A DNA stretch of 64,000 nt, from NCBI GenBank assembly GCA_964570655.1, contig CAZMYU010000004.1, forward strand, positions 49 to 64,048. Reading direction: 5' to 3'. The position numbers and the translations under genes were made by a program. This document shows, piece after piece, positions 2,440-64,000 of this stretch; positions within the stretch are counted from its first letter, which is position 1, and the number at the start of each line of letters is the position of its first letter. This DNA comes from an uncultured Gammaproteobacteria bacterium (GTDB lineage: Bacteria; Patescibacteriota; Patescibacteriia; Patescibacteriales; UBA12465). Below the pieces are notes generated by a model, which was given only the letters and a program-made list of their open reading frames with translations, was not told the origin of the DNA and searched no databases.

Positions 2440-3484
2440 AACTAAAAGCAAATTAAAACCGATCGGAAAATATGTGAGCCATAATGAGCAGGACGGCATT
2501 CGTTATGCTTGGCAGCTTGATGATGTGGATGACAATTTTGTCGAAAGCGGTGCTTTTTGTAAACGGACTTATTTGGGGCTTAATCCGGTTGATGATTTTG
2601 TTGTTGCTTATACAACGTCCGTATCTCTTGGTTGTATTTTGAATAAAATGGATCGATCTTGTAAATTTTGCGTTACCGGAAATAGAATTCCGTTTCATCG
2701 TTTACTGACAGCTGAAGAAATAGCGTTGCAAAATGTTTTTATGGTCTTGGATGATAAAACGGCTAACGATTTTAGTCGAGCCCGAGAATTTGCGTATATG
2801 GGGCAGGGCGAACCAGGATTTTCCTATCAACAAGTTAGCGCCGCTATTCGTTTGACCGATCGAATTATGAATTTTTTGGGTTATCCGGTCTATCGACATA
2901 TTTTTGCTACTTCAGGGATTCCTGGAGCGATTGATCAGTTGACGGCTGAATATAGCCAGGGTTTGTTTGGAAAAACCAAAATATTATTGCACTTATCTGT
3001 GCATTCCGGCTTGGATCGTGGACGATTGATGCCGATTGATGAATTACATTCACTTCAAAAGGTGATTGCGTCATCTGTGAAATATTCAAAGGCTTCCGGT
3101 TTAAAGACTGTAGTAAATTTCATGCTTTTCAAAGATGCTTTTTTGATGGATGAAGGGCCATTTGATACTATTGATACTAAGAATGTTTCCGCTTTAATGA
3201 AATTATTAGACCCCCGATACCATCGGCTTATATTCTGTGAATACAACGCTAATCCCAATGTTGGAAATAATGGAAAGATAGAGCCAGAGGAAGTAGCTGC
3301 CTTGGTTGATCTAGCCAGTAGTTTGGGTTTTGAGACTAAAAAATTTATTGCCTTTGGAAAAGAAGATAATTTAGCCTGTGGCTTGCTTGGCGGCCAAGCT
3401 AAGCCAAACATTAATAAGCAGGAGATCGAGGCAATCTGGAATCGTTCTTTGGAGCTGATTGAAAAATTTAAGAATGAAATATAA
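2432..3484 (+). CDS. RlmN/Cfr-family-like radical SAM enzyme (divergent)
   Basis: Collinear blocks GC..SCKFCVTG, YMGQGEP, ATSGI, LHLSVHS and C-terminal ACGLLGG; ATG 2432 overlaps the upstream stop by 8 nt. Confidence 0.65.
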   Translation: MLKTKSKLKPIGKYVSHNEQDGIRYAWQLDDVDDNFVESGAFCKRTYLGLNPVDDFVVAYTTSVSLGCILNKMDRSCKFCVTGNRIPFHRLLTAEEIALQNVFMVLDDKTANDFSRAREFAYMGQGEPGFSYQQVSAAIRLTDRIMNFLGYPVYRHIFATSGIPGAIDQLTAEYSQGLFGKTKILLHLSVHSGLDRGRLMPIDELHSLQKVIASSVKYSKASGLKTVVNFMLFKDAFLMDEGPFDTIDTKNVSALMKLLDPRYHRLIFCEYNANPNVGNNGKIEPEEVAALVDLASSLGFETKKFIAFGKEDNLACGLLGGQAKPNINKQEIEAIWNRSLELIEKFKNEI

Positions 3485-15811: not shown

Positions 15812-15858
15812 TCCTACTTCGTCCCACTCCGCCTGCGGCTTCCTGGGACTACGCGGGA
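15812..15858. repeat. GC-rich nested-hairpin element (ACTTCG/CTACGC family), copy A
   Basis: TCCT-ACTTCG-TCCC-actcc-GCC-tgc-GGC-ttcct-GGGA-CTACGC-GGGA. Confidence 0.7.
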
Positions 15859-15927
15859 CAAGCCGCTTAACATCACCATCTGATTAATAAAAAAGGCTGA
15901 AGATTAATTCAGCCTTTAAGGTACTTT

Positions 15928-23572: not shown

Positions 23573-23603
23573 CTGTCATCCTGGCGAAGGCCAGGATCCA
23601 GGT
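23573..23603. repeat. CTGTCATCC-hairpin-GGATCCAGG element, copy R1
   Basis: CTGTCATCCTGGCgaagGCCAGGATCCAGGT; identical to 54060-54090. Confidence 0.85.
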
Positions 23604-24820: not shown

Positions 24821-24913
24821 TAATTCATATTTTTTTAAAGCCAATTGCTTCACAGCGATTGGCTTTTTGATTTGGTGTTTGGGTTTTAGTAATTTGTAGT
24901 TTGTATTTGGGGG

Positions 24914-24957
24914 GACTGCCAACCCCACTTCGCCAAGGCTACGCGGGGTTAGCAGTC
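24914..24957. repeat. GC-rich nested-hairpin element, copy B
   Basis: GACTGC-c-AACCCC-ACTTCG-CC-aa-GG-CTACGC-GGGGTT-a-GCAGTC. Confidence 0.7.
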
Positions 24958-26182: not shown

Positions 26183-26214
26183 GCTGGATCCCCAATCAAG
26201 TTGGGGATGACAGA
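26183..26214. repeat. CTGTCATCC-hairpin-GGATCCAG element, copy R4 (inverted orientation)
   Basis: Reverse complement reads TCTGTCATCCCCAActtgaTTGGGGATCCAGC. Confidence 0.8.
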
Positions 26215-53906: not shown

Positions 53907-54053
53907 AACGCCTTAGGAATATTGCCCCAAAAACACGGGGTTGCTCCGCTCCTGCGGCTCCGCACCCCTCACAGCTCCTTCGCTCGCCCCCTAACGGGGG
54001 TCCGTGCCTCGCTCAGTCCGCTATGGTTTTTGGTCCAACATTCCTAAGGCGTT
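53907..54053. repeat. 147-nt composite GC-rich element closed by a long imperfect inverted repeat
   Basis: AACGCCTTAGGAATATTG..CCAAAAAC ... GGTTTTTGG..CAACATTCCTAAGGCGTT; inner hairpins GGGGT/ACCCC, CCGC/GCGG, GCCCCC-taac-GGGGGT. Confidence 0.75.
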
Positions 54054-54059
54054 ATCTAT

Positions 54060-54090
54060 CTGTCATCCTGGCGAAGGCCAGGATCCAGGT
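54060..54090. repeat. CTGTCATCC-hairpin-GGATCCAGG element, copy R2
   Basis: 31/31 identical to 23573-23603. Confidence 0.85.
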
Positions 54091-57915: not shown

Positions 57916-57939
57916 ATAATGCTTGTTTATTTTTGTTTG

Positions 57940-58028
57940 CGGAGAGGATGAGATTCGAACTCATGATAGGAGAAGACTCCTATAACAGGTTAGCAACCTG
58001 CCGCTTTCAGCCACTCAGCCACCTCTCC
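57940..58028 (-). tRNA. tRNA-Ser (anticodon GCT), class II with long variable arm
   Basis: GGAGAGG acceptor, anticodon stem GCAGG/CCTGT with loop TTGCTAA, variable stem ATAGGAG/CTCCTAT, T-arm ATGAG-TTCGAAT-CTCAT. Confidence 0.9.
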
Positions 58029-58095: not shown

Positions 58096-58127
58096 CTGTC
58101 ATCCCCAGCTTGACTGGGGATCCAGGA
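58096..58127. repeat. CTGTCATCC-hairpin-GGATCCAGG element, copy R3
   Basis: CTGTCATCCCCAGcttgaCTGGGGATCCAGGA nested inside the AT-rich inverted repeat 58041-58153. Confidence 0.8.
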
Positions 58128-61265: not shown

Positions 61266-61444
61266 GGCAGACACTAACATTAAATCTATTGGAAGGCTTA
61301 ATAACAGCCTTCCTTTTTATTTGACAAAATCTCTAATAAAATTTATAGTTAGCCCTAGATGTTTAATTCGATAATTTCCTGCATATTTTTAATTTTTAAT
61401 TATTAATTTTACATTCCCCCGAACCCTACTTGGTTCGGGGGTAA

Positions 61445-61516
61445 GTCCTCATAGTTCAACGGATAGAACGCAAGATTGCGGATCTTGAGATCTAGGTTCG
61501 ATTCCTAGTGAGGGCA
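61445..61516 (+). tRNA. tRNA-Arg with anticodon GCG
   Basis: Acceptor GTCCTCA/TGAGGGC, D stem GTTC/GAAC, anticodon stem CAAGA/TCTTG with loop TTGCGGA, T-arm CTAGG-TTCGATT-CCTAG, discriminator A. Confidence 0.85.
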
Positions 61517-61562
61517 CTAAAACAAAAACTCGTCGTTTAAAAACGATGAGTTTTTGTTTTAG
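61517..61562 (+). terminator. Long hairpin directly after tRNA-Arg
   Basis: CTAAAACAAAAACTCGTCGTTT-aa-AAACGATGAGTTTTTGTTTTAG. Confidence 0.6.
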
Positions 61563-61684: not shown

Positions 61685-62400
61685 ATGAAAAAAGACAAAA
61701 AGATAATCTTTGGTTGGTCGAAAAAAATAGACGGCAATATGCGTTTATTTATTGATGAAAATAATACGATCGCCCTAAAAAATCGCCAAAAATTTTTGGC
61801 CAAACAAGGAATTGAATCGAACAAAACAATTGCTATTGATTTAGTGCATGGCAAGGATATTGGTCGAATTTATCATCAGCAACCCGGTATTGTTCCTGGT
61901 TTGGACGGGATTGTCACTGGCGTGCCAGGGATATTCCTGACTATTACAGCGGCTGATTGTCTCCCAATCTTTATTTATGATCCAGTCAAAAGAGTGGTTG
62001 GTTTGGCTCATATGGGCTGGAGGGGAGCTATTGCCGGAGTTGTTCCGGAAATCTTTCGAGTGCTAACCGGTGATTATGGTTGTAATCCAGCTGATATTAA
62101 AATTAGTATGGGGCCACATATTTGCGTCCAGTGTTATGAATTTTCCGACGAAGATGCTGGCCCTTTCCATTATATTGATGATCAGCGGCATGGTTCTTGT
62201 TGTGTTGTCAGACATGGTAAGTTTTGGTTGGATCTGCAAAATTTGCTAATAGTCAATTGGTGTATCGTGGTATTTTGCCCGAGAATATTACCCTCAGTGA
62301 TGAGTGTACCAGTTGTCAGCCAGATGACTATTTCTCATTTCGTCGGGATAAACCCAGGAAAGTCCAGGCCATTCTGGCCTACATCGGCATCAAAGAATAA
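61685..62400 (+). pseudogene. pgeF: Peptidoglycan editing factor PgeF (YfiH/DUF152 family) with a -1 frameshift in an A4 run
   Basis: AADCLPIFIYD...GLAHMGWRG; the canonical C-terminus QLVYRGILPENITLSDECTSCQPDDYFSFRRD is in another frame and ends at 62400 just before terminator 62408-62431; frames join at 62238-62241. Confidence 0.75.
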
Positions 62401-62517
62401 AGCTCTAAAAGCGGTCAAAAACCGCTTTTTTAATACCATTGACACAATTATAATAAAATGTTATAATTTTTGATTATAATTTATAGTAGATTTTTAACAA
62501 CTTAATAAATATAACAC

Positions 62518-62958
62518 ATGAAAAATCGAATTTTTTTGTTTTTTTTAGTTTTGGGAGTGATAGGCATGATCCTGATCGTATCCTCGCCAAAAAAATCTAT
62601 GCCGGCTGAAAGCTATATTACTGACGTAATTCCAGGTAGCGGTCGGACAGTAACCGTCTATATCGATTTTGCCAGAGTCCAAGCCCAGATGGCCGAGCTC
62701 AATAATGGCAATACAGATGTTTATTTGCTAACCGATGGGTTTGGCAAAGATTCTCGGTATCAAAAATTGGACGTTGGCATTTTCACAGTTTTTTTGGGTG
62801 AGCGCTTTTGTCTTTCCAGTGGCCCAAAAACCAAAAAACGTCTAATGCTCAATGAGCGAGGGTCAGAGACGGAAACTTTTAATCTCAACGGCTATTTAAT
62901 AGAAGTTGAGCCACAGACTATGTCAATTGTGTCGAACAACAAAAAAAATAAGAAATGA
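62518..62958 (+). CDS. Small secreted or membrane-anchored protein, tandem paralog 1
   Basis: N-terminal TM; YITDVIPGSGRTVTVYIDF...AELNNGNTDVYLLT...GERFCLSSG. Confidence 0.5.
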   Translation: MKNRIFLFFLVLGVIGMILIVSSPKKSMPAESYITDVIPGSGRTVTVYIDFARVQAQMAELNNGNTDVYLLTDGFGKDSRYQKLDVGIFTVFLGERFCLSSGPKTKKRLMLNERGSETETFNLNGYLIEVEPQTMSIVSNNKKNKK

Positions 62959-63383
62959 AAAAAAGTTATGTAATTATTCTGATCCTGCTTATCGTTATCG
63001 GCATCGTAGCTCATAAGACCTACGAAAAGTATATAGTGCCAGGCAAAGGTTATATTACCAGTGTGATGAAATTACCTCCTGATGGGAAAACCCTGGTGGT
63101 TTTTCTGGATTTAAAAAAGTTGAAATCAGCAGCTGCCGAGATTAACAACGGTGACAGTACTGTTTTTCTGATGACCAGCAAAAGAGCTACTTCCCCGGAA
63201 TGCATAGAATCCGGTCAGATCTACATTGAGACCGGTGAAGAATTTTGTTTCATTACCAGGGGTATACCAGAGAAAGGCATAAGGCTTTCCTCTAAGGACT
63301 ATCGTTACCTGGCTGGTGACAATTTATTGGTCAAATTCCGAGGCAATTCGGTTGGCCAAATATTGCCAAACAGCGTCAGATAG
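62955..63383 (+). CDS. Small secreted or membrane-anchored protein, tandem paralog 2
   Basis: ATGA overlap with paralog 1; YITSVMKLPPDGKTLVVFLDL...AEINNGDSTVFLMT...GEEFCFITRG. Confidence 0.5.
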   Translation: MKKSYVIILILLIVIGIVAHKTYEKYIVPGKGYITSVMKLPPDGKTLVVFLDLKKLKSAAAEINNGDSTVFLMTSKRATSPECIESGQIYIETGEEFCFITRGIPEKGIRLSSKDYRYLAGDNLLVKFRGNSVGQILPNSVR

Positions 63384-63515
63384 AGTCTTATAAACTCCTT
63401 TTTTATCCTCAGGCTCAAAAGTAGCCGGATATTAAAAGGAGTTTTTTTATTTTTAGTCACGTTGACAGCCGGTGCTTAATCTTATAACATTTAGATGATA
63501 ATATTTAATTTCACA

Positions 63516-63592
63516 GCGGAGGGGTGCCCCCACTTCGTCCTACTTCGCCCTTGCGGGCTTCGCAGGACTACGAGGGGCAGGCAGAGCGGTTT
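63516..63592 (+). other. tRNA 5'-half-like fragment (copy 1) interrupted by a 54-nt GC-rich element
   Basis: GCGGAGGGGTGCC + insert + AGAGCGGTTT; the uninterrupted version is at 63634-63656. Confidence 0.6.
63529..63582. mobile_element. GC-rich nested-hairpin element, copy C, at a filled site
   Basis: CCCC-ACTTCG-TCCT-acttc-GCCC-ttgc-GGGC-ttcgc-AGGA-CTACGA-GGGG; boundaries ambiguous by 1-2 nt. Confidence 0.6.
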
Positions 63593-63633
63593 TTAAATAA
63601 TAAACTATAAATATAAAATAATTTAATTTCAAA

Positions 63634-63672
63634 GCGGAGGGGTGCCAGAGCGGTTTAATAGGATAGTCTTGC
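63634..63672 (+). other. tRNA 5'-half-like fragment (copy 2, class II tRNA-like acceptor and D-arm)
   Basis: GCGGAGGGGTGCCAGAGCGGTTTAATAGGATAGTCTTG resembles the 5' part of Ser/Leu/Tyr-type tRNAs; no anticodon stem partner or T-arm follows. Confidence 0.45.
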
Positions 63673-63740
63673 CACCGCCTTCGGCGGGGTCCCGCCTTCA
63701 CATAATGTAATATCGGTGGCGGGAAAAACTGTCAGTGTGT

Positions 63741-63986
63741 ATGTGGTATACTTATATATTAAAAAGTAAAAACTTTAATAAATATTATATAGGTCATTGT
63801 GAGGATTTTGACAAAAGATTAAGCCAGCATAATAATGGAAAAACAAAATCTATTAAGGCCTATATTCCTTATGAGTTAATATATTATGAAAATTTTGATT
63901 TTAAGAAGGATGCCTATAGAAGAGAAATGCAAATAAAAAAATATAAAGGAGGTGAGGCATTTAAAAAATTACTAAAATTAATTTAA
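63741..63986 (+). CDS. Small stand-alone GIY-YIG nuclease-domain protein
   Basis: WYTYILKS...KYYIGHCEDFDKRLSQHNNG...PYELIYYENF...AYRREMQIKKY = GIY, YIG, Arg, Glu and Asn positions of the GIY-YIG fold. Confidence 0.8.
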   Translation: MWYTYILKSKNFNKYYIGHCEDFDKRLSQHNNGKTKSIKAYIPYELIYYENFDFKKDAYRREMQIKKYKGGEAFKKLLKLI

Positions 63987-64000
63987 TAATACAGCGGAGG

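Follow-up and report, generated by a model that had tools for sequence, protein, structure and literature searches.

The known systems closest to the locus treated here are those of the Ssn nucleases. These enzymes consist of a single GIY-YIG domain, cleave single-stranded DNA (ssDNA) beside a hairpin and were described only in 2025 (Chenal 2025, Nat Commun, PMC11893778). SsnA of Neisseria meningitidis, a single-domain GIY-YIG protein of 94 aa (CDD cd10448), binds the NTS hairpin repeat (CGTCATTCCCGCGMAVGCGGGAATCYRG) solely in single-stranded form, with its cut a few nt upstream; the enzyme is inactive on double-stranded DNA (dsDNA) and RNA, and residues Y6, Y17 and E64 are needed for cleavage. 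Its role in Neisseria is the modulation of transformation, not self-mobility. Homologues of SsnA across bacteria are flanked by related motifs, termed SRM, for which a degenerate pattern has been published, and the NTS-ssnA-NTS layout was noted by the same authors to resemble an insertion sequence and was likened to REP/RAYT (PMC11893778). The main text of that paper contains no mention of tRNA. The present text concerns a small GIY-YIG gene that stands among pieces of a tRNA gene. At the right-hand end of a 64 000 nt stretch of contig CAZMYU010000004.1, from an uncultured bacterium of the Patescibacteriota (the whole stretch is called the window below), a gene for an 81 aa GIY-YIG protein lies between a hairpin-bearing fragment of tRNA-Ser(UGA) and the intact tRNA-Ser(UGA) gene.

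T4 SegB is a free-standing GIY-YIG homing endonuclease encoded in a phage tRNA gene cluster (PMC2330249), and a role in segmental amplification has been described for it (PMC13096335). Dunin-Horkawicz et al. (2006, PMC1564403) give no hairpin or tRNA association, their sole tRNA-related remark being a fusion with a TrmH-like methyltransferase. Nesting of GIY-YIG genes in this manner was not found in the open-access papers and bioRxiv preprints searched, and the widespread, orderly association of these genes with tRNA genes is apparently unreported. The first-pass annotation of this DNA, made from the letters alone, had called stand-alone GIY-YIG genes next to tRNAs functionally unexplained; that description is outdated, as the hairpin-flanked single-domain GIY-YIG family comprises site-specific ssDNA nucleases (PMC11893778).

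Structure of the locus at the window edge

Judged from its sequence, the locus is probably a cassette of an Ssn-like nuclease gene and its hairpins that is evolutionarily mobile and lies within a duplicated 5′ part of tRNA-Ser(UGA). Its parts, numbered by window position, are as follows.

63462–63490, + strand: promoter-like TTGACA-17-TAACAT, 5′ of all three tRNA copies (consensus scan 10/12, pattern match only)
63497–63517, + strand: AT-rich leader of copy 1, GATAATATTTAATTTCACAGC (repeat family D2)
63518–63528, + strand: copy 1, tRNA-Ser(UGA) nt 1–11, GGAGGGGTGCC (100 % match to the intact tRNA)
63529–63581, + strand: D-loop insert of copy 1, a GC-rich imperfect palindrome of 53 nt with the signature CTTCG...CTACG (‘GC element C’ of the first-pass annotation)
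63582–63592, + strand: copy 1, tRNA nt 11–21, CAGAGCGGTTT (100 % match); the fragment stops in the D-loop
63615–63635, + strand: AT-rich leader of copy 2 (repeat family D2)
63636–63671, + strand: copy 2, tRNA nt 1–36 (33/36 identical to the intact tRNA)
63672–63724, + strand: two-hairpin insert of 53 nt in the anticodon loop of copy 2
63725–63733, + strand: copy 2, tRNA nt 37–45, AAAACTGTC, the 3′ strand of the anticodon stem
63741–63986, + strand: single-domain GIY-YIG gene, 81 aa (Pfam PF01541, E 9e-15, residues 1–68)
63975–63995, + strand: leader of copy 3, overlapping the final codons of the gene, its stop codon included (repeat family D2)
63996–64085, + strand: intact tRNA-Ser(UGA), of which the first 5 nt (63996–64000) are in the window (ARAGORN on contig L002, offset 63158)

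An intact class II tRNA had been proposed to start at the window edge, and the sequence beyond position 64000 does form one. A 943 nt JGI contig from a different metagenome sample (L002), found through the exact 81 aa product, matches window positions 63159–64000 with a single nucleotide polymorphism, which falls within the upstream gene, and runs 101 nt past the window; ARAGORN places an intact 90 nt tRNA-Ser(UGA) at 838–927 of this contig. A second contig (L001, 970 nt) matches 62664–63633 exactly and ends inside copy 2, consistent with a break by the assembler at the repeat. Since both contigs match it, one of them from another sample, the arrangement is not an assembly artefact. In practice, such repeats cause assemblies to break at tRNA loci. 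Within the window, ARAGORN and Rfam give only two tRNAs, Ser-GCT at 57939–58028 (− strand) and Arg-GCG at 61445–61517 (+ strand). Between 63300 and 64000 there is no ARAGORN tRNA and no match to any Rfam family, tRNA halves and group I introns included, at E values up to 10.

Repeated copies resembling the 5′ half of a tRNA, with displaced 5′ fragments and a third copy after the GIY-YIG stop codon, had likewise been claimed, and all are present. The repeat finder returns a three-member family, D2, made up of an AT-rich leader plus AGCGGAGG (GGAGG...), 26 nt long at 81 % identity, with members at 63497–63522, 63615–63640 and 63975–64000 (118 and 360 nt from start to start); it also gives a split repeat, GGGCAGGCAGAGCGGTTT / GGGGTGCCAGAGCGGTTT. 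Copy 2 extends further than had been thought. Its first 36 nt comprise the 5′ strand of the acceptor, the D-arm, the 5′ strand of the anticodon stem and the loop up to the anticodon, with nt 1–24 exact (63636–63659) and the three mismatches confined to nt 25–36 (63660–63671). The insert is placed directly after the second anticodon base; folded as DNA, its two hairpins form inside the anticodon stem. The fragment ends at nt 45, in the anticodon/variable region and 7 nt 5′ of the ATG. Thus, the boundary is not at the D-arm, where it had been drawn. Of the earlier statement that the internal copies continue into neither a paired anticodon stem nor a T-arm, the second part stands for both fragments, while the first is wrong for copy 2, in which the paired anticodon stem is kept. 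Copy 1 reads as an older unit of the same kind as the cassette, one that has no open reading frame (ORF).

The promoter-like site at 63462–63490 is likely the native tRNA-Ser promoter. No Shine-Dalgarno sequence is visible 5′ of the ATG of the GIY-YIG gene. As a separate observation, the highest-scoring promoter-like site of the region (TTGACA-17-AATAAT, 11/12, again a pattern match only) is located inside this gene at 63808–63836, ~150 nt 5′ of the intact tRNA, which could be transcribed from it without the upstream promoter.

The window contains no GIY-YIG gene besides the ORF at 63741–63986, whose product is called in identical form on L002; a version starting at GTG, of 83 aa, is not on record. 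Its 27 close homologues are 78–115 aa long and come mostly from Patescibacteria (e.g. Magasanikbacteria and Nomurabacteria). Residues Y5, Y16, R26, H30 and E62 are invariant among the 27 (alignment A1), and the spacing of Y5, Y16 and E62 is 11 and 46 residues, versus 11 and 47 for the corresponding residues of SsnA (PMC11893778). No relatives were found in IMG/VR, and GenBank phages and plasmids gave only two and four weak matches, respectively. Relatives ~60 % identical to the window protein are found in metagenome-assembled genomes assigned to Ignavibacteria and Bacteroidota, which, with the usual caution over binning, is consistent with horizontal spread.

Hairpins and the Ssn recognition motif

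The GC hairpins noted earlier between copy 2 and the ORF both exist: H1 is CCGCC-ttc-GGCGG (63675–63687) and H2 is TCCCGCC-21 nt-GGCGGGA (63690–63724). The segment 63665–63726 folds as ssDNA with a z score of −2.4, and the perfect stem is also returned by a perfect-stem scan. The published SRM pattern, HGTCWYN(0-2)YYVSBRHN(0-5)WNVSBRGN(0-2)RNCYNB (PMC11893778), has three strict matches in the window where 0.05 are expected. One of these, at 63665–63694, is H1 of copy 2, 47 nt 5′ of the ATG, with the tRNA-derived AGTCTT supplying its 5′ flank; the flank check covers the upstream side of the ORF, the 3′ side being occupied by the tRNA and the window edge. The other two strict matches are identical intergenic sequences, TGTCATCCTGGCGAAGGCCAGGATCCAG, at 23574 and 54061.

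A relaxed search with the flanks of the NTS (GTCAT...ATCCAG) gives four copies in 64 kb, where 0.37 are expected, and their stems vary with compensation. These canonical SRM/NTS-like hairpins are:

23575–23601, + strand: GTCAT-CCTGGC-gaa-GGCCAGG-ATCCAG
26184–26211, − strand: stem CCCCAA/TTGGGG
54062–54088, + strand: identical to the copy at 23575 (stem CCTGGC/GCCAGG)
58098–58125, + strand: stem CCCCAG/CTGGGG

All four are intergenic where checked, and the last is located ~70 nt from the 5′ end of tRNA-Ser(GCT), on the opposite strand. Four dispersed copies with compensated stems indicate that the genome carries a bona fide SRM family.

Among relatives of the locus, the core YCCCG...CGGGR occurs 57 times within 200 nt of the GIY-YIG ORFs, at 34 of 79 loci, where shuffles predict 0.5 occurrences; its density near the ORFs is 10-fold that of the far flanks. 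When the two-hairpin module was aligned across nine loci, it was 87 % paired, compensatory changes were found at 6 of 12 pairs and the covariation score was reached by 0 of 500 shuffles. H1 of a tRNA-Ser(GGA) relative (L016), TCCCGCgcaGCGGGA, is nearly the core of the Neisseria NTS. The match to the SRM pattern, the enrichment of the core and the covariation of the module make the hairpins a conserved component of the cassette. The first-pass annotation had treated them as a side feature, a view that their position in the anticodon loop also contradicts. A reading of the hairpins as an RNA motif was dropped in favour of a DNA motif, as no known RNA family matched and the Ssn motif fits.

Several other GC-rich structures were seen. 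A second family of GC palindromes, with the signature CTTCG...CTACG, has six overlapping matches at four distinct places in the window, each of them on the + strand, where 0.78 matches are expected; its members lie in the D-loop of old tRNA fragments and, in relatives, directly 3′ of intact tRNAs.

Window, + strand: CTTCG...CTACG palindromes at 101–129, 15812–15868, 24908–24949 and 63529–63581
Relatives: CTTCG...CTACG palindromes at 1000–1042 of L016, 3337–3365 of L004, and 3331–3360 and 3465–3520 of L007

A perfect 10 bp GC hairpin of the YCCCG...CGGGR type, CCCCCGAACC-ctactt-GGTTCGGGGG, is found at 61414–61441 and ends 3 nt 5′ of tRNA-Arg(GCG), with neither a tRNA-Arg fragment nor an ORF accompanying it. 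Immediately 5′ of the SRM copy at 54062, a 100 nt GC-rich island (53924–54026) in an AT-rich intergenic region is bounded by the inverted repeat CGCCTTAGGAATATTG / CAACATTCCTAAGGCG. Every 2 kb bin from 1 to 64000 has a positive GC skew, and the cumulative curve climbs without reversal. The window thus falls entirely on one replichore, its + strand being the leading strand, which carries the cassette with its hairpins and three of the four SRM copies.

The cassette at other tRNA genes

One genome per species was scanned for relatives of the GIY-YIG gene; 280 were confirmed and 79 loci were kept. A tRNA gene on the same strand is located within 100 nt of the ORF at 43 of the 79 genome loci, and one on the opposite strand at none. 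Likewise, 91 of the 95 tRNAs at these loci point the same way as the ORF, and almost half (47/95) fall within the nearest 7.5 % of the flank. More than 15 tRNA identities are involved, and the association is therefore not specific to class II tRNAs. Fragments match the tRNA of their own locus, often at 36/36 nt, and were therefore generated locally, not brought from elsewhere.

Two layouts were found. In the first, termed ‘down’ and seen mostly in Patescibacteria, a tRNA fragment up to nt 35/36 is followed by GC hairpins, 4–15 nt of the 3′ side of the anticodon arm, the ORF and the intact tRNA, which starts 1–10 nt past the stop codon or, in L003, overlaps the ORF. It occurs at Ser, Tyr, Glu, Ala, Cys, Asp and Trp tRNAs, and every context of a close homologue that was examined shows this design. 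In the mirror layout, termed ‘up’ and found mostly in Ignavibacteria and Bacteroidota, often at tRNA-Asp, the intact tRNA is followed by 0–40 nt, the ORF and a 3′ fragment from nt ~38 to 76, with a TCCCGA-gtac-TCGGGA hairpin in place of part of the T-arm or of the whole anticodon arm. The ATG is only 0–2 nt past the 3′ end of the tRNA in L012 and L053, and several Ignavibacteria loci have a hairpin resembling an intrinsic terminator between the tRNA and the ATG.

‘Down’ loci, tRNA-Ser(UGA): L003, L004, L005
‘Down’ loci, tRNA-Tyr(GUA): L006–L011; also at tRNA-Tyr, L211
‘Down’ locus, tRNA-Ser(GGA): L016
‘Down’ locus, tRNA-Ala: L031
Further ‘down’ locus: L030
‘Down’ loci, tRNA-Glu: L033, L049
‘Down’ locus, tRNA-Asp: L058 (Salegentibacter echinorum DSM 24579)
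‘Down’ locus, tRNA-Cys: L085
‘Up’ loci: L022, L024, L025, L028, L051, L037, L048, L053, L074, L088

The ‘up’ locus of the cultured Rosettibacter primus (L074) has, at 1414–2000, several copies of tRNA-Glu, some partial and some complete, arrayed to either side of the GIY-YIG ORF; each copy carries a 22 nt T-loop insert (TCCCAAAGGGACTCCTTTGGAG). A search of metagenomes with the junction 15-mer of the window, AGTCTTGCCACCGCC, gave chance matches only, a 15-mer being too short for a database of that size, and no GIY-YIG gene was found near the 80 loci checked.

Syntenic empty sites, tandem cassettes and gain of a hairpin suggest that the cassette changes over time. The search for empty sites was anchored on the TPR gene adjacent to the tRNA-Tyr cassette. 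This cassette is present in L007 and L211, whose neighbouring TPR proteins are 92 % identical. The site is empty in L213 and L214 (neighbour 54 % identical), in which tRNA-Thr is followed by 16 nt and the intact tRNA-Tyr, and in L212 (neighbour 62 % identical), in which tRNA-Tyr comes directly after the TPR stop codon. The first-pass annotation had proposed a GIY-YIG cassette that duplicates part of a tRNA and had called for comparison with relatives lacking it; the same architecture at several tRNA identities, together with its absence from these syntenic relatives, supports the proposal, with the empty sites being those of the Tyr cassette.

In L016, from a metagenome-assembled genome, two 100 % identical tandem units of 345 nt each contain tRNA-Ser(GGA) nt 1–36, two hairpins and an ORF. 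Upstream of them lies an older fragment (nt 1–11, a GC palindrome, nt 12–19) of the same design as copy 1 of the window, with the D-loop insert at the same tRNA position. L211 and L007 have the anticodon-loop insert in common, but the fragment in L211 has an extra 23 nt D-loop insert with a hairpin (TCCCGCtattaaaGCGGGA plus 4 nt), which appears to be a recent gain. ORF-less 5′ fragments of tRNA-Thr, each interrupted at one shared D-loop position (after GGTA) by a GC hairpin or a pair of them, adjoin intact tRNA genes at 2693–2770 of L213 and 2283–2350 of L212, both Magasanikbacteria relatives without a GIY-YIG cassette at the site. Copy 1 of the window is therefore of a recurrent type.

Upstream of the locus, the ORFs at 62518–62958 (146 aa) and 62955–63383 (142 aa) are adjacent with a 4 nt overlap, have hydrophobic N-terminal segments and contain similar internal motifs (...ELNNGNTDVYLLT... 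and ...EINNGDSTVFLMT...); they look like tandem paralogues. Among 5.8 billion proteins, the 142 aa product had no homologue but itself, and no relatives were found in the metagenome scan; given that the protein search returned the query alone, the gene is an orphan. Further upstream, a YfiH/laccase-domain ORF (61685–62473) matches Pfam PF02578 over residues 19–187 of 262 only, and the expected C-terminal part is in another frame, in the ORF at 62224–62400 (...CTSCQPDDYFSFRRD...), which suggests a frameshift or sequencing error near 62220.

Competing explanations and comparison with known systems

As a specific mechanism for the cassette, nick-driven recombination is possible but falls somewhat short of an even chance. 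The locus would be transcribed from the tRNA promoter as leader, ORF and tRNA, with RNase P releasing the tRNA. When the + strand becomes single-stranded, through transcription, replication or DNA uptake, the hairpins could fold, and the nuclease would bind them and nick a few nt upstream, inside the tRNA-derived segment. Such a break would fall in sequence of which the intact tRNA gene has a second copy, and mending it by homologous recombination could copy, amplify or delete the cassette. The cassette could also pass to any genome with a similar tRNA gene, with the conserved tRNA sequence providing the homology arms. The need for an intact, presumably essential and single-copy, tRNA to survive would explain the full copy that is always adjacent. 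Duplication by this route would give units such as those of L016 and the serial copies of the window. The serial insertion suggested in the first-pass annotation does fit the identical tandem units of L016; unequal crossing-over between tRNA-derived direct repeats fits them equally well.

A bolder version, in which the cassettes are autonomous selfish elements of a new kind that need neither transposase nor integrase to home into tRNA genes, is doubtful. In that case, hairpins would replace tRNA arms (the D-loop, the anticodon arm or the T-arm), the nuclease would nick the hairpin-bearing strand exposed by heavy tRNA transcription, and gene conversion within or between genomes would proceed through universally conserved tRNA sequence, with the intact tRNA always rebuilt. 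If true, this would also explain the multiplication of SRM/NTS repeats.

Several points count against an Ssn-like, mobile cassette. The nearest solved structures to the window protein are UPF0213 proteins (1zg2, E 4.8e-14, and 1ywl, E 2.9e-10; BH0048, EF2693). A strict SRM beside the ORF is found at only 2 of 83 loci, the window and L003, with the hairpin core alone shared elsewhere, and the canonical copies of the window have GTCAT/ATCCAG flanks that the hairpins beside its ORF do not. A hydrolytic nuclease is by itself unable to insert DNA, and the intact tRNA is unprotected from any nuclease that targets tRNA sequence. Additionally, the relatives with empty and filled Tyr sites are fairly distant (neighbour 54–62 % identical), so that loss instead of gain is possible, and no empty site was found for the locus of the window itself in metagenome and protein searches through the 142 aa neighbour gene.

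The alternative that survives best, although unlikely, is a passive one. Hairpins would enter or arise in spare tRNA fragments left by slippage or unequal crossing-over, and the GIY-YIG gene would be a domesticated resident without a mobilizing role, for example one controlling uptake of transforming ssDNA as in Neisseria, where SsnA acts on transformation. Hairpin-bearing tRNA fragments without an ORF do exist, both in copy 1 and at the tRNA-Thr genes of L213 and L212, and the L016 tandem units are a product of the kind that unequal crossing-over between direct repeats gives. What passive origin leaves unexplained is the ORF itself, which abuts tRNA sequence on both sides at a distance of a few nt in 40+ lineages, always on the same strand, and which recurs with ~60 % identity at different tRNAs and in different phyla.

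The chances are smaller again for a classical homing endonuclease of the free-standing, T4 SegB-like kind, which would cut the dsDNA tRNA gene of cassette-free genomes and have the cassette copied in by repair, with the hairpins incidental or protecting the pseudo-copy. The type has an N-terminal GIY-YIG domain and a C-terminal DNA-binding domain in ~200 aa or more, whereas the 81 aa protein has no separate DNA-binding domain and scores 16.8 bits with the intron-endonuclease model TIGR01453, below the cut-off of 56.05. It does have the GIY-YIG domain and a position in a tRNA locus as for SegB (PMC2330249); fragment breakpoints cluster in the anticodon loop in both layouts, and empty and filled sites occur among relatives at the Tyr cassette. 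However, the would-be target, the intact tRNA, persists beside the gene, so that there is no self-immunity; the targets would have to span >15 tRNA identities, the gene is essentially absent from phages, and the only characterized single-domain relatives do not cut dsDNA (PMC11893778).

It is improbable, though compatible with the Ssn-like cassette, that the tRNA fragments are kept by selection for expression, the tRNA-like leader and its hairpins forming a 5′ untranslated region that gives a strong promoter, stability, and processing sites for RNase P and RNase Z. Against this, the motif that the hairpins match is one recognized in DNA, and RNA is not bound by SsnA (PMC11893778). Both RNases require a T-arm and a 3′ acceptor strand, neither of which the fragments have, and at several Ignavibacteria loci the terminator-like hairpin stands between the tRNA and the ATG. 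A role at the RNA level would nevertheless suit the constant co-orientation of ORF and tRNA, with a tRNA or tRNA-like segment before the ORF or a tRNA 1–10 nt after its stop codon. The lack of a visible Shine-Dalgarno sequence, the location of the only good upstream promoter-like site 5′ of copy 1, and the ATG 0–2 nt past the tRNA in L012 and L053 would also fit.

A remnant of a group I intron with a homing ORF, or the att scar of an integrase island, is effectively excluded by the Rfam null for 63300–64000 and by the restart of the sequence at tRNA nt 1 after the ORF, with no 3′ exon continuing; the insert is indeed in the anticodon loop, a classic site of bacterial tRNA introns and of one integrase class, but the 360 nt unit has a single 81 aa ORF and no integrase, and the 5′ part of the tRNA is duplicated, not the 3′ part. 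A split tRNA or archaeal-type intron was also rejected, given the bacterial tRNA features, the fragments without a 3′ half and the presence of the intact gene.

The Ssn-like cassette, if correctly read, makes this locus and the ~40 related ones a second, highly ordered genomic habitat for Ssn-like genes, and offers a concrete, testable model for the mobility of gene and repeats through a nick inside tRNA-derived homology. It accounts for a common annotation oddity, the small GIY-YIG ORFs and broken tRNA pieces found beside tRNAs in Patescibacteria, Bacteroidota and Ignavibacteria. The loci also supply many natural nuclease/hairpin pairs for ssDNA tools.

Among known systems, the stand-alone Slx1-like/UPF0213 (YhbQ) proteins share with the window protein a minimal GIY-YIG domain without auxiliary domains, a likeness that is one of sequence relatedness only. 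SegB is likewise a GIY-YIG gene embedded among tRNA genes and, by way of DNA breaks and recombination, promotes the inheritance or amplification of the tRNA region around it. SegB, however, is a multi-domain phage dsDNA endonuclease, whereas the window has a bare 81 aa domain on a bacterial chromosome, with hairpins and partial tRNA duplications.

REP/RAYT and the TnpA of IS200/IS605 also combine a small nuclease gene with short palindromic repeats recognized as ssDNA hairpins, and repeat copies without an ORF are dispersed in the genome, as here. The enzyme there is an HUH Y1 transposase and here a GIY-YIG hydrolase, from which strand-transfer chemistry is not expected. Nesting in tRNA genes is not known for REP/RAYT. 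With the integrative elements that target tRNA genes, the locus has in common a partial tRNA duplicate that keeps the gene intact and leaves a displaced fragment, as well as breakpoints in the anticodon loop or T-loop. It differs from them in having no integrase, in its 360 nt unit, in the hairpins that interrupt the displaced fragment, and in duplicating either the 5′ part (window) or the 3′ part (mirror layout).

The closest likeness is to the Ssn systems. The window protein is a single-domain GIY-YIG protein in the size range of that class (~80–95 aa) with the predicted catalytic Tyr/Tyr/Glu, short GC hairpins with the core YCCCG...CGGGR lie beside its gene, and GTCAT...ATCCAG copies are dispersed as in the Neisseria NTS. 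In contrast to the NTS-ssnA-NTS layout, the gene here is wedged between a tRNA fragment and an intact tRNA, and its hairpins are located within tRNA fragments, in the anticodon loop and D-loop, or, in other lineages, in place of the anticodon arm or part of the T-arm.

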